Shown here in pieces: positions 17,938 to 64,000 of a stretch of 64,000 bases of DNA (within the stretch, counting starts at the first letter, position 1; every line of letters begins with the position of its first letter). This DNA is from Lachnospiraceae bacterium (lineage in GTDB: Bacteria > Bacillota > Clostridia > TANB77 > CAG-508): contig CAVFFZ010000001.1 of assembly GCA_963621995.1 (NCBI GenBank), positions 134,522-198,521 of the forward strand, written 5' to 3'. The translations under genes were made by a program, and so were the position numbers. Below the pieces are notes generated by a model. That model was not told the origin of the DNA. It saw nothing but the letters and a program-made list of their open reading frames with translations, and made no database searches.

Positions 17938-18372
17938 TTATTTTATTCTTTCATATGTTACATATTCATAATCAAAAGGATTGGCTTCATTTTTTATTCC
18001 TTGCTCTTTTTTAACAATTTGCCATTCATCTTTACTTATTTCTGGAAAATAAACATCTCCATCAAATTCTTCATTAATATGTGTTATATACATTTTACTT
18101 GCATATGGTATTAACAATTTATATATTGTAGCACCACCTATTACAAAATTTTCTTCTTCAGAACTAATATATTTATCCAACATAGAAATATCTTCTAATG
18201 TTTCTACATTTTCATTTTCTACATTCATTTCCATATCATTGCATAATATTACGTGTTTTCTATTTGGTAACACTCTGCCTAATGATTCAAAAGTTCTTCT
18301 TCCCATTATTATGGTATGACCTATAGTTAAAGATTTAAATCTTTTTAAATCTTCTGGTAAATATTATCCTCC
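17938..18372 (-). pseudogene. folA: Dihydrofolate reductase lacking its first ~20 codons. The upstream frame runs into an inserted palindromic element and a stop.
   Basis: YLPEDLKRFKSLTIGHTIIMGRRTFESLG...VIGGATIY match DHFR. Bacillus DHFR begins ~21 residues earlier (MISFIFAMDANRLIGKDNDLPW). An in-frame TAA sits inside the repeat at 18371-18425. Confidence 0.6.
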
Positions 18373-18425
18373 GAACATTAGGGACGGTCCTTTTCGTTCC
18401 GAAATTGGAACACTAGGGACGCTCC
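18371..18425. repeat. 55-nt compound palindromic element (GGGACGGTCC core), orientation 1
   Basis: ccgaacattaGGGACGGTCCttttCGTTCCgaaatTGGAACactaGGGACGCTCC. Inverted copies are at 18461-18511 and 36102-36154. Confidence 0.7.
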
Positions 18426-18432
18426 TATTATT

Positions 18433-18868
18433 TTATTCTTTCTTTATAACATTTTTAAAAGGAATGTCCCCATGTTCCGATTTCGGAACGAAAAGGACCG
18501 TCCCTTGTGTTATATATCCTTCTATTTCAAAATCTTCTACTTTGAAATCATAGAAATTTTTAGTTGGATTTTTTATAACTAATTTTGGATGTACATCCAT
18601 ACTTTCTGCTTCTATTAATTTTTCTATTAATGGAACATGTCTATCATATATATGACAATCTCCTATATTGTGTGTTAAAGTTCCTACTTCTAAACCTGCT
18701 ACTTGTGCAAACATGCAAAGAAGTGCTACATATTGCATAGTATTCCATCCATTGGCTGCAACCATAAATTCCTTTCCTACATCATATACATTAGTTACTC
18801 CAACTAATGATATATAACTTGCTTTATTTCTTTTTATATACTTTATGTAAGGAGCAAAAGTGCCCCGT
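18433..18868 (-). pseudogene. thyA: Thymidylate synthase (ThyA) C-terminal remnant. The reading frame enters and leaves through repeat elements, and the PCH nucleophile region and N-terminal half are absent.
   Basis: LEVGTLTHNIGDCHIYDRH and FYDFKVEDFEIEGY match the ThyA C-terminus. The last codons (GTVLFVPKSEHGD...) are encoded by the repeat. The upstream frame stays open only to a TGA at ~18868, passing through the repeat at 18851-18882. Confidence 0.55.
18461..18511. repeat. 55-nt compound palindromic element, orientation 2. It forms an inverted pair with 18371-18425 around a 35-bp AT-rich spacer.
   Basis: GGAATGTCCCCATGTTCCGATTTCGGAACGAAAAGGACCGTCCCTTGTG. Confidence 0.7.
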
Positions 18869-19857: not shown

Positions 19858-20616
19858 TTGTTAAAGTTTTTAAGGAGTGATTTTTATATGGCATATTGTG
19901 AACAAGAATTTGATTTAACTATTAGAGATATTAATTCTAATTTAGAACTTTCTAATAAAGGTATTTTATCTTTTTTTGAAAATATTGGTGGTTTCCAATC
20001 TAATGAAGCTGGTCTTGGTATAAAAAATATCGAACAAACAAGATTAAGTTGGATTCTTCTACATTGGAAAATTAAAGTTTTAAAAAATATTAAATATGAT
20101 GGTAACCCAGTTAAAGTTAGAACATGGTCTAGAGGTATTAAAAAAGCTTGTTGTATGCGTGATTTTGAGCTTTATGACAGTAATAATAAATTATGCGTTA
20201 TTGGTACTTCAAAATGGACCTTAATTCATTTTGATAAAGGAATAGTTAGATTAACAGATGATTTAGTTCATAAATATATATATGATCCTAAATCTGTGTT
20301 TGGTGATGATTTTGAGTTCAAAAAAATTGTTGAGCCTGATAATTATTCTAGCATATATGAATACACTGTTTCTAGAAGAGATATTGATATTAATAATCAT
20401 ATGCATAATACTTATTATTTAGATTTAGCTTATGAAGCTCTTCCAAAAGATGTATATGAAAATAATACTTTTAACAATTTTGAAATAATGTATAAAACTT
20501 CTGCCTTGCTTGGTGAAAAATTAAAATGCTTCTACTCTTTTGTAAATGGTGAACATTTTGTTACTATAAAAAGTGAAGATGAATCTAAACTTCATGCTAT
20601 TATTAAATTTTATTAG
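19858..20616 (+). CDS. Acyl-ACP thioesterase; the likely start is MAYCEQEF at ~19888
   Basis: Two hot-dog-like halves and conserved NxHxxN-type residues (DINNHMHNTYY); typical ~245-aa length. Confidence 0.6.
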   Translation: MLKFLRSDFYMAYCEQEFDLTIRDINSNLELSNKGILSFFENIGGFQSNEAGLGIKNIEQTRLSWILLHWKIKVLKNIKYDGNPVKVRTWSRGIKKACCMRDFELYDSNNKLCVIGTSKWTLIHFDKGIVRLTDDLVHKYIYDPKSVFGDDFEFKKIVEPDNYSSIYEYTVSRRDIDINNHMHNTYYLDLAYEALPKDVYENNTFNNFEIMYKTSALLGEKLKCFYSFVNGEHFVTIKSEDESKLHAIIKFY

Positions 20617-20630
20617 TAAAACTATTATTA

Positions 20631-20749
20631 GAACAAAAGAGACATGATTAATATTTTTAGACATTTTAAAAACTTTTCATGTCTCGTCTTTGTTCGGTCG
20701 CCAAATTTTATGTAATAAAATTTGTGTGGAATGTTTAGCGAAGCATTTT
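20631..20749 (+). repeat. ~118-nt hairpin-rich repeat element, copy 1, orientation A. It ends on the first base of the NUDIX stop codon.
   Basis: GAACAAAAGAGACATGATTAATATTTTTAGACATTTTAAAAACTTTTCATGTCTCGTCTTTGTTCGGTCGCCAAATTTTATGTAATAAAATTTGTGTGGAATGTTTAGCGAAGCATTTT. Other copies are at 21393, 25973 and 56180. Confidence 0.8.
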
Positions 20750-21339
20750 CACTTATATATTTGTCTTTCGTTTTCTTTATTTTCTCTAATTCTATAATTA
20801 ACAAATTCATTTAAAACAGTTAGCATTTCTCTATTAAAATTTTCCCTTTTAATATCGTCTGTTTTATTATTTTCTATTAAATATCTTATAACAGATAAAT
20901 TTTCAAAAGAAATGCTAAAATTTCCACCTTTTTCATTTTGACTTAACATCTGTTTTTCTTCATTTACTTTTTCTTTTGTCTCTCCAAAATAGAAATAAGT
21001 AACAGTTAATCTATTAATATGTTTTCCAAGCTTTCTATCATAATAATTTCTATTATAATTATCTATTCTTAAAAATGGTTCCTCTTTCAATGCAACTTTT
21101 TCTATTCCACTCTCTTCTAATATTTCTCTCTTTAAAGCTTCTATTGTTTTTTCTTCTTCTATTTTTCCTCCTGGAAGCATTAATATTCCTGCATACTTTA
21201 CTAATAGTGCCTTGCCTTGCTCATCTAATATAACTCCTCTTGTTTTTTGTACTTTTCTTTCAATTTCTTCTTCCAACAAGTGATCCTCATTATATTTTAT
21301 TATTTTCACTATTTTTCCCCGTTTCATATTTTTTATCAT
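20749..21339 (-). CDS. NUDIX hydrolase
   Basis: Nudix box GGKIEEEKTIEALKREILEESGI (GX5EX7REUXEEXGU). Confidence 0.85.
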   Translation of the reverse strand: MIKNMKRGKIVKIIKYNEDHLLEEEIERKVQKTRGVILDEQGKALLVKYAGILMLPGGKIEEEKTIEALKREILEESGIEKVALKEEPFLRIDNYNRNYYDRKLGKHINRLTVTYFYFGETKEKVNEEKQMLSQNEKGGNFSISFENLSVIRYLIENNKTDDIKRENFNREMLTVLNEFVNYRIRENKENERQIYK

Positions 21340-21392
21340 ATTATCATAATTTTATTTCTTTTTCAACAAAACTTTCTATTATTTTTTTACAT

Positions 21393-21512
21393 GAACAAAA
21401 GAGGCATGATTAATATTTTTAGACATTTTAGAAAACTTTTCATGCTTCCTCTTTGTTCAACCGCCAAATTTTATGCAATAAAATTTGGGTGGAATGTTTT
21501 GTGAAGCATTTT
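21393..21512 (+). repeat. ~118-nt repeat element, copy 2, orientation A, upstream of the NUDIX gene
   Basis: GAACAAAAGAGGCATGATTAATATTTTTAGACATTTTAGAAAACTTTTCATGCTTCCTCTTTGTTCAACCGCCAAATTTTATGCAATAAAATTTGGGTGGAATGTTTTGTGAAGCATTTT. Confidence 0.8.
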
Positions 21513-21569
21513 ATATTCTATGAAAGTTTGGAAAACTTTCATAGAATATAAAAAAGTAGACAAAATTGT

Positions 21570-22871
21570 CTACTTTTCTCTTTCTACCTCTTCTTTAACA
21601 TATTCCATAGCTTTCATATATTCAATAGAGTTTAGTTTTATATATCCCATATAATATTCTAACATATTTCCCATTAGATTACATCTCTTTATTCTATATC
21701 CATTTTGTCTATTTTCTAATATTGTGTAACTTGGTGTCATTTCTTTTAATTCTTTTAAAAACTCCTCTTTGTTTTCTACACTAGGAAATATTCTCTCTTT
21801 TCCTGATCTTTTATCATGTGCTGCTGGTCCATTTGCTCTTGATAATTCTTCTCTATAAATAGAACGAAGTTGTAATTCAAATGTATATTCAGGATTATCT
21901 AAGTATTGAAATTTTATATGATCAGCTATATACCCATTTTCTTTATCTTTTCTTTTATATCCATCTTTTGGTATTTCGACATTTAAGTCTTGTAAGATTT
22001 GAGGATTATTTAATAGGTAATTTGCAAAATCTTTTTCTACTTCGATGCAACACATATCATTATATTTTGTTAGTTCTTTAGTTGAAGCTTCTTTTCTTTT
22101 TTCTATAACTCTTTGTATTCTTTTATTTTCTGTTTTTAATTCATCTGGTACATTTGCAATAACTATTTTAAAAGCTCTTAAATCTTTAGCTTTTAAATAT
22201 TCCATTGGTTTATGTAATTTTTCTTGCATTGCTTTATCTTCTTGTACTTCTTCTACACATTCCCAATGTAACAAGTTTTTTTCCGCCTTTTTTTCTCTTA
22301 TTGTAGCTTCTTTGCCATATTGTTCCTCTATGCTATTTATTATTTTTTCATTTTTTTCTAATTCTCCGTTTTGTAGTCTTATTTTAGCAACTCTTAAACA
22401 TGCTGTTTTCATGTTGTCACTTAATTGTTTTTCTTTCGCTAAATCTTGTATTTGTTCAAAAGATTTTATATCTTTATAAAACAGATTGTTTATTTTCTCT
22501 TGTATTTCTTTGCTTCTATCTATTTCACTATTTTGATCTATTTTACTTATTATTAAATTGCATAGTCTTTGTTTTTCTTCTAAACTAATTCCTTCTATTG
22601 CATATAATTTACAAAGTCTTTCTATCTCTAATTTATCTATTTTTCCTTTTAAGCTCCTTAAAGATTTTTCTCTTCCTCTTGGAGGTTCTATTGAAACTCC
22701 TTGATACCTATCAATAAACAAGTTGACTATTTGTAAAAAAGTTTGCTCCACCCTTTGCCTGTATTCTTCATTATGTTTCAATCCTAACTGTTGCTCATAT
22801 GAAATTTGGTCGGGTGACTTATCTACTTTGTAACGACTTTTTATTGTATCTATCATTTTTAATTTTTTCAC
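21570..22871 (-). CDS. Hypothetical 433-aa protein with RelA/SpoT-like (alarmone-synthetase type nucleotidyltransferase) signature blocks at both ends of a ~200-aa charged insertion
   Basis: N-terminal PRGREKSLRSLKGKIDKL resembles the RSH Syn block GRVKxxxSIxxKxxRK. C-terminal GYIADHIKFQYLDNPEYTFELQLRS resembles GYRSLH...EIQIRT. The DxxGxR Mg-binding block is not evident. Confidence 0.35.
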   Translation of the reverse strand: MKKLKMIDTIKSRYKVDKSPDQISYEQQLGLKHNEEYRQRVEQTFLQIVNLFIDRYQGVSIEPPRGREKSLRSLKGKIDKLEIERLCKLYAIEGISLEEKQRLCNLIISKIDQNSEIDRSKEIQEKINNLFYKDIKSFEQIQDLAKEKQLSDNMKTACLRVAKIRLQNGELEKNEKIINSIEEQYGKEATIREKKAEKNLLHWECVEEVQEDKAMQEKLHKPMEYLKAKDLRAFKIVIANVPDELKTENKRIQRVIEKRKEASTKELTKYNDMCCIEVEKDFANYLLNNPQILQDLNVEIPKDGYKRKDKENGYIADHIKFQYLDNPEYTFELQLRSIYREELSRANGPAAHDKRSGKERIFPSVENKEEFLKELKEMTPSYTILENRQNGYRIKRCNLMGNMLEYYMGYIKLNSIEYMKAMEYVKEEVEREK

Positions 22872-23034
22872 CTTCCTTTCAGCTAATATATTATATAATA
22901 TTTATTCAAAAAAGTCCATACTAATCACTAAATTTATTTTACATAATTTCTACATTTTTCTTTATTTTGTAACATTTTTCTTTGTTTTCTCATAATATGT
23001 ACTATAAATCTTTTAAATTAAGGAGGCTTTAAAT

Positions 23035-23388
23035 ATGTATAATTGTAAGTACAAAAGATGCTGTTGTCAAAATAATTTTGATCAAAATGTTTTAGAAACA
23101 ATTTGTAATGATTATGGTGTTGCAGCTGATTATTATACTAAAAAAGATGATAATGCATGTAATTGCGGCTTTGAACAAGGTGAATCTGTTTTTCCTCAAA
23201 ATCCTTTACTTGCACAAAGTTACGTTCCTATTCAGACAATAGATAAAACTTTTACTCCATGTGTTGGTTTAAAAATGGGCACTATTTTTCCTGAGCTTGT
23301 TAGCCCATATTCGCCATGTCAATCTGTTGAAGAAAATGCTTTTATAAAAGCTATGAATACTATTGGAGAGGGGTGTAACAAATGTTAG
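23035..23388 (+). CDS. cotJA: Spore coat protein CotJA
   Basis: Small Cys-rich protein heading a cotJA-cotJB-cotJC arrangement. Confidence 0.6.
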   Translation: MYNCKYKRCCCQNNFDQNVLETICNDYGVAADYYTKKDDNACNCGFEQGESVFPQNPLLAQSYVPIQTIDKTFTPCVGLKMGTIFPELVSPYSPCQSVEENAFIKAMNTIGEGCNKC

Positions 23389-23879
23389 AAAATGAAAATA
23401 GAAATTGTGGTTGTGGATTCTTAAGTAATAACAACCATATGATGAATAATAATGCTAATATGATGGTAGAAAATACTGACTATCCTAACGCTATGCCTAC
23501 AACTGCTGGAATTGGTATGAATTCAAATAATAATAATTGTTGTTGTAGTCCAAGTTGCAACACTCCAAGAGTTCCTGTATATTCTTATGAATTTACTAAT
23601 ATCGGGGCTGAAGAAACTTGTGAGGAAGAACAAGAAACTAGAGAAGAAATTCTTCAAAAAATTCGTTGTTTAAAATTTGCAATCGTAGAACTTGCAGAGT
23701 ATTTAGATACACACCCAGGAGATGAAAAAGCTCTTTGTCTTCACAGAGAATATGCTACTAAACTTAACGAATTAATGGAACAATATCAAAAGGTATTTGG
23801 ACCTCTTACTATAGCTTTTCCATGTAATAAATGGAGATGGCTTGAAGGACCTTGGCCTTGGGAAAGGGGGAGTTTTTAA
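23382..23879 (+). CDS. cotJB: Spore coat protein CotJB
   Basis: Conserved CotJB C-terminal block LKFAIVELAEYLDTHPGDEKAL...EQYQKVFGPLT. Confidence 0.7.
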   Translation: MLENENRNCGCGFLSNNNHMMNNNANMMVENTDYPNAMPTTAGIGMNSNNNNCCCSPSCNTPRVPVYSYEFTNIGAEETCEEEQETREEILQKIRCLKFAIVELAEYLDTHPGDEKALCLHREYATKLNELMEQYQKVFGPLTIAFPCNKWRWLEGPWPWERGSF

Positions 23880-24490
23880 TGTGGACTTATAATAAAGTAT
23901 TACAATACCCAATAAATATAAAATGTCCAAATCCTAGACTTGCTAAATATATAATTTCTCAATATGGTGGACCTGATGGAGAGCTTGGTGCTTCTCTTCG
24001 TTATTTATCTCAAAGATTTGCTATGCCAGATGAAAATGCAAAAGCAATTTTAAATGATATAGGTACAGAAGAATTAGCTCACTTAGAAATGGTTGGAAGT
24101 TTAGTACATCAATTAACAGATGGTGTTTGCCCTGAAGAATTAGAAAAAGCTGGACTTGGTGCCTATTATACAGACCATGGGGTAGATGTTTACCCTAGTT
24201 CAGCTGCTGGTAATCCTTGGACAGCAAGCTATATAGCTGCTAAAGGCGATCCTATTGCAAACCTTCAAGAAGACTTAGCAGCAGAACAAAAAGCTAGAGC
24301 AACTTATGAAAAATTAATTGATCTTTCAAAAGATGACCCTGAAGTTTTGGATGTCCTTCGTTTCTTACGTCAAAGAGAAATTGTTCACTTCCAAAGATTC
24401 GGTGAAGCTCTTCGTGGAGTTCAAGATAAATTAGCTGAAAAGAAATTTTATATGGCTAATTGCACTAAAAAAATGTGTGATAATAACTAG
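23852..24490 (+). CDS. cotJC: Spore coat protein CotJC (manganese catalase-like)
   Basis: MWTYNKVLQYPINIKCPNPRLAKYIISQYGGPDGELGASLRYLSQR matches the CotJC N-terminus. Confidence 0.85.
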   Translation: MALGKGEFLMWTYNKVLQYPINIKCPNPRLAKYIISQYGGPDGELGASLRYLSQRFAMPDENAKAILNDIGTEELAHLEMVGSLVHQLTDGVCPEELEKAGLGAYYTDHGVDVYPSSAAGNPWTASYIAAKGDPIANLQEDLAAEQKARATYEKLIDLSKDDPEVLDVLRFLRQREIVHFQRFGEALRGVQDKLAEKKFYMANCTKKMCDNN

Positions 24491-25900: not shown

Positions 25901-25972
25901 AAATATTATGAGTTCCATTATTGACACTCATTTTTAAATTCTAGAAAAGTTCTCTAAACTTTTCCAGAATTT

Positions 25973-26088
25973 AAAATGCTTTGCTAAACATTCCATCTAA
26001 ATCTTATTACATAAAATTTGGCAGTCGAACAAAAACAAGGCATGAAATTTTTTAATGTCTAAAAATATTAATCATACCTCTTTTGTTC
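25973..26088 (-). repeat. ~118-nt repeat element, copy 3. It is in orientation A relative to sigH and ends exactly one base before the sigH stop codon.
   Basis: Minus strand reads GAACAAAAGAGGTATGATTAATATTTTTAGACATTAAAAAATTTCATGCCTTGTTTTTGTTCGACTGCCAAATTTTATGTAATAAGATTTAGATGGAATGTTTAGCAAAGCATTTT. Confidence 0.8.
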
Positions 26089-26766
26089 TTATGCTTCATC
26101 TCCTATACTTTTTATTGCTTTTTTTCTTATTCTTTGAATAGCATTATCTATTGACTTTACAGGAGCGTCTAACTTTTCTGCAATTTGAACATAGCTTTCT
26201 CCTTGCATATATCTATTTAATACCTTTTTTTCGAAATCACTTAAAGATTTATCTATAGCAACTTCTACTGTTTTATAATATTCTTTTTTAGTTATTGTAT
26301 CTAATGGATCTTCTATTTGATGTGAATCAAATATGTCTAATAAGTTTGAATCTTCATCATCTTCATATGCTGCTGTATTTAAAGATAAATATGAATTAAG
26401 TGGCATATGTTTTTGTCTATTAGATGACTTTATTGCTGTAATTAGTTGTCTTTCAATACATAAGTTGGCAAATGTTTTAAAAGAATTTTGCATTTCTGGA
26501 TTATAATTTTTTACTGCTTTAAATAATCCTATTAAACCTTCTTGTACTATATCTTCTTTTTCTGCACCAATCATAAAGAATTTGCTTACTTTCATATTAA
26601 CTAATTCTTTATATTTTTCAATAAGAAACTCAAGAGCAAATTTATCCCCAGACTTAATTACAGTAATTAAGTCCTCATCACTCATGTTTTTATAATTGTC
26701 TGTAACTGAAAAATATAGGTTACTCTTTTTCATATTGTTTTTTATTCCCCTTTTGTTGAATTTCAT
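26089..26766 (-). CDS. sigH: Sporulation sigma factor SigH (Spo0H)
   Basis: Sigma-70 region 2 (EDIVQEGLIGLFKAVKNYNP), FKTFANLCIERQLITAIKSSNRQKH block and region 4 HTH (ESYVQIAEKLDAPVKSIDNAIQRIRKK). Confidence 0.8.
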   Translation of the reverse strand: MKFNKRGIKNNMKKSNLYFSVTDNYKNMSDEDLITVIKSGDKFALEFLIEKYKELVNMKVSKFFMIGAEKEDIVQEGLIGLFKAVKNYNPEMQNSFKTFANLCIERQLITAIKSSNRQKHMPLNSYLSLNTAAYEDDEDSNLLDIFDSHQIEDPLDTITKKEYYKTVEVAIDKSLSDFEKKVLNRYMQGESYVQIAEKLDAPVKSIDNAIQRIRKKAIKSIGDEA

Positions 26767-36101: not shown

Positions 36102-36154
36102 GGAATGTCCCCTATGTTCCGAATTTGGAACGAAAAGGACCGTCCCTAGTGTTC
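36102..36154. repeat. 55-nt compound palindromic element, copy 3. It overlaps the miaB stop codon and its last three codons.
   Basis: GGAATGTCCCCTATGTTCCGAATTTGGAACGAAAAGGACCGTCCCTAGTGTTC. The miaB TAG lies at 36146-36148 inside the element. Confidence 0.7.
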
Positions 36155-55990: not shown

Positions 55991-56179
55991 TTTTTTCCCA
56001 TTTTTCCTTCTTCATTTATTTATATTAGTTATTTTGGCTAAACACAAAAAAATAACACTTTCTTCAAGTGTTGTTCGTTAATCATTGCTTTCTTCACAAT
56101 GTCCGTTTCCATTCTTTTTTTATAATAACACAATTTAATACATTTGTCAAAAAAGAATTTTAAGAAATTTTAATATTAA

Positions 56180-56297
56180 AAATCTTTGCTAAACATTCCA
56201 CACGAATTTTATTTCATAAAATTTGGTGGTTGAACAAAGACGAGGCATGAAAAGTTTTCTAAAATGTCTAAAAATATCAATCATGCCTCTTTTGTTC
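56180..56297 (-). repeat. ~118-nt repeat element, copy 4. It is in orientation A relative to the gene at 56300-57811 and ends 2 nt before that gene's stop codon.
   Basis: Minus strand reads GAACAAAAGAGGCATGATTGATATTTTTAGACATTTTAGAAAACTTTTCATGCCTCGTCTTTGTTCAACCACCAAATTTTATGAAATAAAATTCGTGTGGAATGTTTAGCAAAGATTT. Confidence 0.8.
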
Positions 56298-56299
56298 TT

Positions 56300-57811
56300 T
56301 TACATTTGATTTGTTGTATTACTTATAACATTTGTTGTAGTTGTATTACTTATAGCATTAGTTGTAGTATTCGTTATTACATTTGTTGTAGTTTCGTTAA
56401 TTGTATTCGTTTTGTTATTTGACTTTGTCTCATCATTTAATTCTTCTAAATCTACATATTGATTCATATATTCAATTACATTATATGATGTTCCATTAAA
56501 CACCATTGTATATTCTTCTCTACCATTATTTATTACATAATAAACATTTTCTAAAGCCGTTGCTACTAATTCTTTTCCTAAATAATTAACTATTCCATAT
56601 ATTGATTTTTTTCTTTTATTTTCATCTTCAGTTATTTTTGAGACTACAATTCCTTTTATATCTGGAATTATTAATGTGCTATTAGAAGTATTGTTATTTG
56701 TTATACAACCTAATGAATCATATTCTATTGGTAATATTATATTTCCCTTTTTGTCATACATACCCCATTTACCATTTTGTTTTACTGGTATTGCATTATT
56801 AAATAACAAATACGGATTTTTAATATCACTATTTTGGAATTGTGTTGCATCTATACCTATTTCATCATATTCTAAATATATTAATATTTTTCCGTTTTTC
56901 TCTATAACACCTTTTTTATTATTATTTGTTGCTAAATATAAATTCAAATCTTTATCTATTTGTTTTAAACTATCATATTGTGGACTTACTTTTGTATCTC
57001 CATCTGCTGTAATAATTCCTACTTTATTTTCTGGAGTTTTTACTATAAATTCTTGTGTACTTTCTATAAATTCAATGTCAGTATATTTAGTTCCTACAAT
57101 TTCTTTGTCTCCTAATTTATATATACCATATCTTATATCTTTACTATTAGCATTTCTATCTGTATTATCTATATTTTGTATTATCATTAGTCCATATAAT
57201 AAAGCTTTTTGGTTTTTAAAGTCTGTAGCCACTGCAGATGTATTATAATTTTGTGTATAGTAATTTGCTAAATATGACAATGTATATATTGTTATTTTAT
57301 TTTGTTCTTGATTCCTTGTTATTTGTATATTACAAGCTAAACTAAGACCTTCAGCTGTAATATAAAGTTTTTTATTCATTCTTATTACTGGTTTTTCTAT
57401 TGTATAATATTCATAATCTACCTCATCTATAGGGGTTTTATAAATTATATTTGAATCTTTTTCAAATGTACATACTTCGTTTTCTCCCTCTAGATATCCT
57501 TTTGAAGTATCCTCACTATATTGTTTATATCCACTGTTATAATATTTATATCCTATCATAGGAGCAATATCTTCTAAAGATACATACACTGTATCTCCTT
57601 CATAAACAAATAAATCATTTTTTGACGAAACTTTCTTATCATCTATATAAAATTTGAACAATTGACCTTCTAAATAATATATTGTTATAAATAAGATTAT
57701 ACTAATTACAAAAAGCATAATAATTATTATTGTTATAAGTTTCATTGTCTTTTTATTTTTTCTATCTTTTTCTTCTTGATTTGTTCCTATAATTTCCATA
57801 AAATCCTCCAT
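56300..57811 (-). CDS. Membrane-anchored hypothetical protein (503 aa) with a C-terminal tandem Thr/Asn-rich low-complexity repeat
   Basis: N-terminal TM helix. The C-terminal NTINETTTNVITNTTTNAISNTTTTNVISNTTNQM is encoded by imperfect ~24-nt tandem DNA repeats at 56300-56420. Confidence 0.45.
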   Translation of the reverse strand: MEDFMEIIGTNQEEKDRKNKKTMKLITIIIIMLFVISIILFITIYYLEGQLFKFYIDDKKVSSKNDLFVYEGDTVYVSLEDIAPMIGYKYYNSGYKQYSEDTSKGYLEGENEVCTFEKDSNIIYKTPIDEVDYEYYTIEKPVIRMNKKLYITAEGLSLACNIQITRNQEQNKITIYTLSYLANYYTQNYNTSAVATDFKNQKALLYGLMIIQNIDNTDRNANSKDIRYGIYKLGDKEIVGTKYTDIEFIESTQEFIVKTPENKVGIITADGDTKVSPQYDSLKQIDKDLNLYLATNNNKKGVIEKNGKILIYLEYDEIGIDATQFQNSDIKNPYLLFNNAIPVKQNGKWGMYDKKGNIILPIEYDSLGCITNNNTSNSTLIIPDIKGIVVSKITEDENKRKKSIYGIVNYLGKELVATALENVYYVINNGREEYTMVFNGTSYNVIEYMNQYVDLEELNDETKSNNKTNTINETTTNVITNTTTNAISNTTTTNVISNTTNQM

Positions 57812-57825
57812 TATTTTCTTTTGTT

Positions 57826-59746
<1,921 letters not shown>

Positions 59747-62310: not shown

Positions 62311-62335
62311 TTAAAAACAAGTTATATATAAAAAA

Positions 62336-62406
62336 TGTGGCAAAAGGGTCGGTCTTTTTTGCCACACATTTTTTATGTGGCAAAAAAGGCCGACCCTTTT
62401 GCCACA
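62336..62406. repeat. Pair of inverted REP hairpins (TGTGGCAAAAGGGTCGGTCTTTTTTGCCACA / TGTGGCAAAAAAGGCCGACCCTTTTGCCACA) forming a 71-nt super-palindrome
   Basis: Direct inspection; same family as the REPs flanking the RAYT. Confidence 0.75.
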
Positions 62407-62412
62407 TTTAAT

Positions 62413-64000
62413 TTATATTTTTTCTACTTCTATTTGAAGTTTTTCGCCATTTATTGATGTTTCTGTGTAATTGTTTCTTTCAGCATTGTATATAATTTCG
62501 TTTGCTAATGTATCTCTTTGAATTTGCTCTGCAAACTTTTTAATTACATTTTTTAACATTTCATTTCCAGCAACATAAAGGTTAATTCTATCTAATACTT
62601 CAAATCCACTATCTTTTCTCATATTTTGTACTTTAGATAAAATTTCTCTTACATACCCCTCTTCTTTTAGTTCTTCAGTAATTGTAGTTTCTAATACAAC
62701 ACCAATTTCACCTTCGCCTGCAAATGCAAATCCATCTTTTCCTTGCATTGTAATTAAAAGATTTTCGCTATTTAATGATATTGTTTCTTCTCCTACTTTT
62801 ATTACTTCTTCTTCACCTTTTTGAATTTTTAGTGCAAGTTCCATTTGATTTTTCTTTGCTATTTCTTGTTTAATTTGTGGTATTAATTTTCCATAAGTTC
62901 TTCCTAATACTGGTAGATTTGGTTTAATTTCAAAATTAACATACTTTGACATTTGGGCTCCAAACTCTACTTTTTTGATGTTTAATTCATCTTTTACTAT
63001 ATCTGCATAGTATTTTGGAAGCGTACTTACTGAAATTAGCATTTCTGAAAGTGGTTGTCTATTTTTAATATTTGCACTATTTCTTGCACTTCTTCCTAAT
63101 TTTACTATTGTATAAGCTAAGTCCATTTCTTTTTCTAAGACTTTATCTATAGCACTTTCATCTGCTTCTGGCCAAGTACATAAATGTATACTTTCTGGAG
63201 CATTTTTGTCTAAGTTCACTACTAAGTTTTGATAAATTTCTTCTGTAATAAATGGTACAAATGGTGCACAAATTTTTGCTAAAGTAGTTAATACTTTATA
63301 TAGTGTTACATATGCGCCTATTTTATCTTCTGTTAGAGACTCACTCCAATATCTTTCTCTGTTTCTACGTACATACCAGTTAGATAAGTTGTCTGTAAAT
63401 TCTTCTATTTCTATTGCAGCATTTGTTATATCGTATTTATCTAATTTTTCTTCTATATCTTTTATTAATGTATTTAATTTAGAAATTATCCATTTATCCA
63501 TTACATTTTCTGATTTGAAATCTACATATTCTAATGGGTTAAATTTATCTATTTCTGCATAAAGTACATAGAATGAGTAAACATTCCATAATGTAGACAA
63601 GAATTTTCTTTGTGTTTCTTCTACATCTTTTATAGAAAATCTTGTTGGTAGCCATGGTGCTGAAGATGTATAGAAATGCCATCTTGTAGCATCTGCTCCT
63701 ACTGAATTTAATACTTCAAATGGATCTACAACATTTCCTAAATGTTTAGACATTTTTAAACCTTTGCTATCTAAAACGTGTCCTAATACTATACAATTTT
63801 CAAATGGGTTTGTATCAAATATACATGTTGAAATTGCTAAAAGAGTATAGAACCATCCTCTAGTTTGGTCAACAGCTTCTGATATAAATTGAGCTGGGAA
63901 GTTTTTATCAAACAATTCCTTATTTTCAAATGGGTAATGTAATTGTGCAAAAGGCATAGATCCTGAATCAAACCAGCAGTCTATAACTTCTTTTTCTCTT
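62413..64000 (-). CDS. ileS: Class I aminoacyl-tRNA synthetase, C-terminal part (most likely isoleucyl-tRNA synthetase); the 5' end lies beyond the window
   Basis: [12 protein letters not shown] (KMSKS) and an anticodon-binding domain. The ORF is open to the window edge. Confidence 0.7.

Follow-up and report, generated by a model that had tools for sequence, protein, structure and literature searches.

A divergent protein with a predicted RSH synthetase fold beside the cotJ operon of uncultured Clostridia

Described RSH synthetases and the present locus

RelA/SpoT homologue (RSH) enzymes control the stringent response, and toxic forms of them act in toxin-antitoxin and anti-phage systems. Here we describe a gene for an RSH-like protein in a 64,000-nt stretch of DNA (contig CAVFFZ010000001.1 of assembly GCA_963621995.1, positions 134,522 to 198,521, forward strand; hereafter the window) from an uncultured Clostridia member, together with the NUDIX hydrolase gene next to it and the repeats that flank the latter. 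A census of 2020 distinguished 30 subfamilies of small alarmone synthetases (SAS) (PMC7229694). We consider it likely that the RSH-like protein is a stand-alone, divergent SAS-like pyrophosphokinase, that the NUDIX gene is independent of it and that the intergenic repeats are later arrivals. The RSH-like family is tied to spore-coat genes and not to an antitoxin, and a large insertion breaks up its predicted catalytic domain. On this reading, three unrelated things lie side by side at the locus: the RSH-like gene, the NUDIX gene and the repeats. What results is a known enzyme family in a new architectural variant, together with an undescribed dispersed repeat, which is of lesser interest. If the enzyme is active, the family would represent a new architecture, possibly with sporulation-linked alarmone-type chemistry, in gut Clostridia.

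With regard to the stand-alone synthetases of Firmicutes, RelQ/SAS1 (YjbM) and RelP/SAS2 (YwaC) are like the RSH-like protein in all five Syn motifs, and they are likewise encoded by stand-alone chromosomal genes without an antitoxin partner. In contrast to them, the RSH-like protein has about 135 helical residues between Syn1 and Syn2, a longer Syn2-Syn3 segment, and additional modules at its two ends, a helical region at the N-terminus and a beta-hairpin/helix at the C-terminus. It is about twice as long as these enzymes, is missed by the Pfam model PF04607 and is known here from its sequence and a structure model.

CapRel(SJ46), a fused toxin-antitoxin tRNA pyrophosphokinase (PDB 7ztb), is also a single chain with extra domains around the RSH core, and neither this protein nor the RSH-like protein has a separate partner gene. 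On the other hand, the RSH-like protein has no demonstrated pZFD domain, its extra domain is predicted inside the catalytic domain and not appended to it, and its gene is fixed beside cotJ, not in a prophage or defence island, with no match in PADLOC.

Fold, active site and possible activity of the RSH-like protein

The window is low in G+C (about 27%), and a locus identical to it (L001) lies on NCBI assembly GCA_963656305.1. We gathered 45 loci containing 39 distinct full-length RSH-like genes; the relatives come from gut metagenome-assembled genomes (MAGs) of human, rabbit, mouse and ruminant. The gene in the window is as follows.

21570..22856, minus strand: RSH-like gene for a divergent 428-aa protein with a predicted RSH synthetase fold; the open reading frame (ORF) reaches a GTG at 22871 (433 aa)

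The homologues in the family alignment are 428 aa long, which points to the ATG at 22856 as the probable true start; residue positions below follow the 433-aa numbering. An earlier note, made from the sequence of the window, had pointed to this 433-aa ORF (21570-22871, minus strand) and tentatively called it an RSH synthetase on the basis of two peptide blocks near its ends. Both the ORF and the two blocks are present, and the assignment is now firm because fold, profile and motif evidence agree.

The AlphaFold2 (AF2) model of the RSH-like protein (pLDDT 91.7, pTM 0.88) has the three-dimensional fold of RSH synthetases, with Tas1 scoring 8.1 in the structure comparison. The family profile picks up bona fide RSH proteins such as P0216, which matches PF04607 (RelA_SpoT) with an E-value of 1.6e-18 and also matches solved Rel and SAS2 structures. 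Comparison of the RSH-like family with P0216 by hhalign gave 95.7% probability (E 8.5e-9) with every motif aligned, the pairs (family/P0216) being KDLRAFKIVI/SDIIAGRIIV, KENGYIADHIKF/KKNGYQSLHITI, FELQLRS/FEVQIRT and AAHD/IAHT. PF04607 itself was matched at E<=0.01 by 9 of the 35 aligned family members (best 3.8e-6), with scores of 27.6 bits for P0071 and 26.6 bits for P0059 against a cutoff of 27; the match of P0059 places its residues 219-318 on profile positions 7-105. The family is small: 103 homologues were recovered in a search of 5.8 billion proteins, and 94 representatives at E<=1e-3 among 1.84 billion, and the named members are all labelled 'hypothetical protein'. Searching phages and plasmids with the protein by tblastn gave no match. 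The family appears highly divergent and seems to escape standard detection with Pfam and NCBIfam as applied here.

Residues R67, K69, S73, K77, D230, N312, G313, Y314, H318, E332, Q334 and H352 are invariant in 35 sequences, down to 33% identity. Syn1 (R-x-K-x3-S-x3-K), the ATP-triphosphate motif, is present as R67, K69, S73 and K77. The middle DxxGxR block, which the earlier note had not seen, is actually present as the variant KDLRAFKIVI; the invariant Asp230 of this Syn2 lies within KDLR[A/G]FKIVI, which aligns to SDIIAGRIIV of P0216. Syn3 (N312, G313, Y314 and H318) aligns with KKNGYQSLH, and Syn4 (E332 and Q334, with S337 nearly invariant; motif E-x-Q-x-R-[ST]) aligns with FEVQIRT, while Syn5 consists of A350 and H352. 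The residues of FaRel2 that bind ATP, Mg2+ and the acceptor are R64, K66, S70, K74, D90, Y128, E145 and Q147 (PMC11782079), and the catalytic residues of the RSH-like protein map one-to-one onto them. The gene is functional, since its dN/dS is 0.20-0.23 against the five closest relatives; constraint on it is weaker than on most of its neighbours (0.01-0.24).

In the AF2 model, the helical insertion of about 135 residues between Syn1 and Syn2 spans approximately residues 93-225, the helical segment between Syn2 and Syn3 is longer than usual, and the additional N-terminal helical region and C-terminal beta-hairpin/helix module are seen. A Y-x-G-Y (YXXY-like) motif stands on the C-terminal hairpin and helix of the window protein and of about half the family, not in its distant half. 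We suppose that the insertion and the two terminal modules are putative regulatory parts that probably control the enzyme.

The conserved residues and the model suggest that the protein may be active as an ATP:acceptor 3'-pyrophosphotransferase. ATP-Mg2+ would most likely be bound via R67/K69/S73/K77 and D230, the purine of the acceptor would be stacked on Y314 of the N-G-Y loop, and E332/Q334 would support the transfer of the beta,gamma-pyrophosphate of ATP to the 3'-OH of the acceptor. The product is probably an alarmone of the (pp)pGpp or (pp)pApp type rather than a modified tRNA. Alarmone synthetases carry an extensive area of positive charge near the acceptor loop, which is smaller in the tRNA-modifying FaRel2 (PMC11782079). 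In the RSH-like protein, K306, K308 and K310 flanking this loop are invariant, and together with that contrast they make a nucleotide acceptor likelier than tRNA.

It is possible, though in our view doubtful, that the protein is instead a CapRel-like fused toxin and regulator, whose RSH core would either pyrophosphorylate the CCA ends of tRNA or produce (pp)pApp, and whose inserted helical domain and/or C-terminal beta-hairpin-helix module would block the core until a phage protein or a sporulation trigger appears. The catalytic site is intact although there is no partner gene, and the RSH-like gene changes more quickly than most of the genes around it (dN 0.08-0.11 vs 0.002-0.08). Moreover, one locus (L025) carries a 47%-identical, horizontally replaced allele inside flanks that are 92-99% identical, and the Y-x-G-Y of the C-terminal module recalls YXXY, the neutralising motif of pZFD antitoxin domains (PMC11782079). 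However, the distant half of the family does not keep this motif, the gene has a fixed syntenic position and a sigma-A-type predicted promoter and is not placed in a variable defence island, no match was found in PADLOC, phages or plasmids, and the invariant lysines by the acceptor loop suit a nucleotide better than tRNA if the charge argument of PMC11782079 is followed. Thus, a SAS-like pyrophosphokinase acting on a nucleotide is preferred here.

The allele of L025 (L025:6001-7197) is of a 399-aa type with a borderline match to PF04607, and is 47% identical to that of the window, while the flanking genes are 92-99% identical. At the DNA level, identity between the two loci is 44-66% inside the RSH-like gene and 93-99% outside it, and dS is 0.74 for the RSH-like gene and 0.14-0.53 for its neighbours. 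This drop of identity with raised dS points to replacement of the allele by recombination.

The cotJ, thioesterase and NUDIX neighbours

The gene order around the locus is ychF (-), cotJC/cotJB/cotJA (+), RSH-like (-), NUDIX (-), acyl-ACP thioesterase (+) and radical-SAM (-). The features flanking the RSH-like gene are as follows.

23035..24490, plus strand: cotJA-cotJB-cotJC spore-coat operon (Pfam CotJA, CotJB and Mn_catalase), divergent from the RSH-like gene
22890..22918, minus strand: predicted sigma-A-type promoter of the RSH-like gene, TGGACT-17-TATAAT (from a scan; -35 and -10 conserved)
21550..21579, minus strand: predicted intrinsic terminator (from a scan), hairpin and T-run, overlapping the RSH-like stop codon
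21338..21366, minus strand: predicted promoter of the NUDIX gene, TTGAAA-17-(TG)TAATAT (from a scan; stretch identical in L025)
20749..21309, minus strand: NUDIX hydrolase gene, 186 aa (PF00293 and family alignment); the ORF reaches an ATG at 21339 (196 aa)
19858..20616, plus strand: acyl-ACP thioesterase gene, convergent with the RSH-like and NUDIX genes

For counting, 37 distinct loci were available for the immediate downstream gene, 36 had a sufficient upstream side and 32 had at least 5 kb of downstream flank. The conserved association of the RSH-like gene is with the divergent cotJABC operon, not with NUDIX: cotJA is its divergent neighbour within 800 nt in 34/36 loci. The spacer between them is mostly 170-185 nt (178 nt in the window, 22857-23034), and its length (about 175-180 nt) and several blocks are conserved over about 30 loci. 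The -35 and -10 blocks of the predicted RSH-like promoter are conserved in 21 aligned intergenic regions, and the cotJ side of the spacer has a CATAATATG-type -10 element. Many loci also have the motif TGTCGAA (TGTAGAA in the window) in the spacer, which we presume to resemble a Spo0A box. Downstream, the convergent thioesterase gene comes immediately after the RSH-like gene in 20 of the 37 loci; this linkage has disappeared from the most distant third of the family, while that to cotJ persists longer. No conserved second operon gene precedes or follows the RSH-like gene across the collected loci, and hairpins equivalent to its terminator stand 3' of the gene in L010, L004 and L025. The gene looks monocistronic from its predicted promoter and terminator.

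The linkage to cotJ may stem from common regulation or from nothing more than common descent within one clade, and a literature search for a link between RSH and cotJ, or between SAS and sporulation, gave nothing specific. Since the control region of 175 nt is common with the cotJ operon, one could imagine an RSH subfamily, not classified before, in which a fast-evolving helical sensor or regulator splits the catalytic domain, that is, a self-regulated CapRel-like pyrophosphokinase (for alarmone synthesis or tRNA inactivation) coupled to sporulation; we regard this fuller scheme as rather improbable. The strict association with cotJABC would also suit a protein that has the RSH fold without pyrophosphokinase function, such as a nucleotidyltransferase with a different reaction or a non-catalytic protein with a structural or regulatory part in spore-coat assembly. 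The sequence is indeed too divergent for Pfam, Syn2 has Lys in place of its Arg, and Asp/Arg stand where the canonical AAHWxYK block has Trp/Tyr. However, the residues by which solved RSH synthetases contact ATP, Mg2+ and the acceptor base are all invariant down to 33% identity, which is not expected of a pseudo-enzyme and makes one unlikely, and the gene is under purifying selection, so we give this alternative very little weight against a pyrophosphokinase.

The NUDIX gene described in the earlier note as a 196-aa ORF (20749-21339, minus strand) is genuine. It matches PF00293 with 38.7 bits (cutoff 21.1), its NUDIX box GGKIEEEKTIEALKREILEESGI is intact (G-x5-E-x7-REILEESGI), and the core residues are invariant in the family alignment. 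The homologues begin with MKII, which makes the GTG at 21309 the probable true start of a 186-aa product. E. coli MutT and NudG (PMC5845004) and Bacillus NahA (PMC7584652) are alike in the intact box and in size. In contrast to these alarmone-hydrolysing enzymes, only the NUDIX-box segment of the present protein matches characterised proteins, and its family (45 clusters) is confined to the same Clostridia clade as the RSH-like family. The protein scores far below the cutoffs of the MutT-type models of NCBIfam. Matches of its profile in PDB cover only profile positions of about 5-92, the NUDIX-box region, and all are generic MutT/Nudix entries; neither the NCBIfam models nor the PDB profile search found similarity to MutT, NudG, NahA or Ndx8 beyond the box.

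The position of the NUDIX gene is variable. It lies directly downstream of the RSH-like gene in 2/37 loci, those of the window's own species and L025, and somewhere downstream in 7 of the 32 loci with sufficient flank. In the five closest sister loci (L004, L010 and L012-L014; RSH-like proteins 80-84% identical), there is no NUDIX gene between the RSH-like and thioesterase genes, whose stops are about 35-100 nt apart with a terminator hairpin between them. Orthologues that are 51-63% identical occur 1.9-4.4 kb downstream, beyond the radical-SAM gene, in five more distant lineages (L009:8392-8940, L022:6219-6734, L019:4686-5216, L020:4575-5081 and L005:10646-11200). The NUDIX gene therefore moved within the same 5-kb neighbourhood during evolution of the clade, and it reached the slot downstream of the RSH-like gene only in the window lineage and one sister lineage. 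This pattern is a conserved syntenic block with a wandering gene, not an operon. Moreover, the two genes are 260 nt apart in the window, with the predicted terminator and a separate predicted NUDIX promoter between them, so that NUDIX is an independent transcription unit according to these predictions.

In the earlier note the two genes had been proposed as a toxin/antidote pair, to be checked by co-occurrence across genomes, and the pairing fails this check. In FaRel/ATfaRel and other toxSAS modules, a neighbouring hydrolase removes the product of the RSH enzyme, and the genes of such modules are conserved together in tightly linked operons, often with overlaps (Jimmy et al., 2020; PMC7229694). 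The idea has real attractions, in that an RSH synthetase fold with an intact active site is now supported, MutT, NudG and NahA are able to hydrolyse (p)ppGpp (PMC5845004; PMC7584652), the genes are adjacent and co-oriented in the window and L025, and NUDIX orthologues are within 5 kb in five other lineages. However, unlike in toxSAS modules, the hydrolase here is a NUDIX protein with its own predicted transcription unit, it adjoins the RSH-like gene in only two loci and is missing from this site in the five closest relatives, no second operon gene of any kind is conserved, PADLOC gives no match, and the NUDIX protein fits no alarmone-specific subfamily. The toxin-antidote module is largely refuted by the co-occurrence data, and a two-gene toxin-antitoxin system of this kind seems to us most improbable. 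This negative result is equally important: a NUDIX antidote cassette fails comparative genomics and should not be propagated as a toxin-antitoxin candidate. Of the earlier interpretation as a whole, the RSH-like enzyme stands, while the pairing and, as described below, the repeat-bounded cassette do not.

Several points weigh against our overall reading of a stand-alone SAS-like enzyme with an independent NUDIX neighbour. The RSH-like protein of the window had no match in Pfam, NCBIfam, PADLOC or PDB sequences (phmmer), and a PDB search with the family profile found nothing. Global Foldseek searches against PDB and BFVD gave nothing with E <0.06, and the inserted segments probably defeat this global alignment. 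Syn2 is non-canonical, D-x-x-[A/G]-x-K versus D-x-x-G-x-R. With regard to the NUDIX gene, the promoter and terminator calls are consensus predictions, and the orthologues 1.9-4.4 kb away leave room for a loose functional link with the RSH-like gene. Moreover, every relative is an uncultured MAG of one clade, so the synteny counts are phylogenetically non-independent.

Intergenic repeats and other elements of the window

REP, BOX, RUP and Correia-type elements are dispersed intergenic hairpin repeats of bacteria. The repeats beside the NUDIX gene resemble them in being about 125 nt long, non-coding, multi-hairpin, intergenic, present in both orientations and often just past stop codons, and also in presence/absence polymorphism between sister genomes. 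They differ in that no sequence match was found in Rfam, phages or plasmids, and that neither clear terminal inverted repeats nor a target-site duplication could be recognised. With a profile built on the copies, four are detected in the window, two per orientation.

20631..20758: repeat copy c1, which overlaps the end of the NUDIX gene (final codons and stop) and ends 15 nt away from the stop of the thioesterase gene
21393..21521: repeat copy c2, between the RSH-like terminator and the NUDIX promoter
25968..26090: repeat copy c3, opposite orientation, just upstream of a tRNA gene and bordered on the other side by a sigma-factor-like gene (26089-26766, minus strand)
56175..56299: repeat copy c4, opposite orientation, beginning right after the stop of a 503-aa gene (56300-57811, minus strand)

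The two same-orientation repeats flanking the NUDIX gene are as real as the earlier note had stated, with slightly longer spans than given there; the segment identities between c1 and c2 are 83-91%. The 25-nt hairpin core occurs four times in the window, versus 0.01 expected by chance. The profile also finds a partial copy elsewhere in L010/L011, and the only further copy in a metagenome scan is a full one on an unrelated contig (L046:7936-8059), which shares nothing else with the window.

The repeat has two consensus stems, and three hairpins in single-copy folds. Folding is stronger on the strand reading GAACAAAAGAGG..., with z of about -5 in three of the four copies, and in this orientation three of the four start 0-15 nt past the stop codon of a co-oriented gene. 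Comparison with Rfam gave nothing credible either at gathering thresholds or at E up to 10, and plasmids and phages gave no match. Across five copies, a single compensatory pair is all the covariation there is, which is too little for calling an RNA function. A small ORF inside it (MKSFLKCLKILIM...) was rejected; a 1-nt deletion in c1 gives a stop after four codons.

The bracketing of a single gene by same-orientation copies had suggested a mobile repeat-bounded cassette, integron-attC-like or composite-MITE-like, that arrived with the NUDIX gene in one insertion, and the close genomes L004 and L010-L014 do lack both the gene and the two repeats at this site. However, in L025 the same NUDIX gene (95% identical) stands at this site and neither repeat is found; at the DNA level, L025 and the window are 95-100% identical across the gene, its promoter region and both flanks. 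L025 shows a clean gap at the c2 site and a different terminator-like hairpin of about 50 nt at the c1 site, so that c1 replaces another hairpin and marks no junction common with c2. In addition, c3 and c4 are solitary copies in the opposite orientation at unrelated intergenic sites, and the L046 copy is on a contig otherwise unlike the window. A single cassette insertion is therefore scarcely credible to us. The NUDIX gene without repeats in L025 indicates that it was in the slot before the repeats, clean loss of both copies being less parsimonious, and c1 and c2 entered the two intergenic gaps separately, after NUDIX was present. The repeats are an undescribed, dispersed multi-hairpin intergenic element. 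An integron attC reading was set aside in view of the solitary opposite-orientation copies and L025; attC core sites were not formally searched.

Some other elements of the window were also noted. At 17938-18765, only a C-terminal ORF of 110 aa is left of thyA, and the dihydrofolate reductase (DHFR) gene is down to 122 aa, whereas in sister genomes the products have 285 and 163 aa, respectively. Between the two remnants lies a palindromic element of 138 nt with arms at 18374-18412 and 18473-18511 (92% complementary); a further copy of an arm is at 36110-36153, and the element constitutes a second dispersed repeat family. Finally, a GC-rich hairpin GTGGCAAAAGGG..CCTTTTTGCCACA occurs in three copies, at 58964-59003, 62335-62374 and 62375-62414, the last two in tandem, and these look like terminators or another short repeat family.

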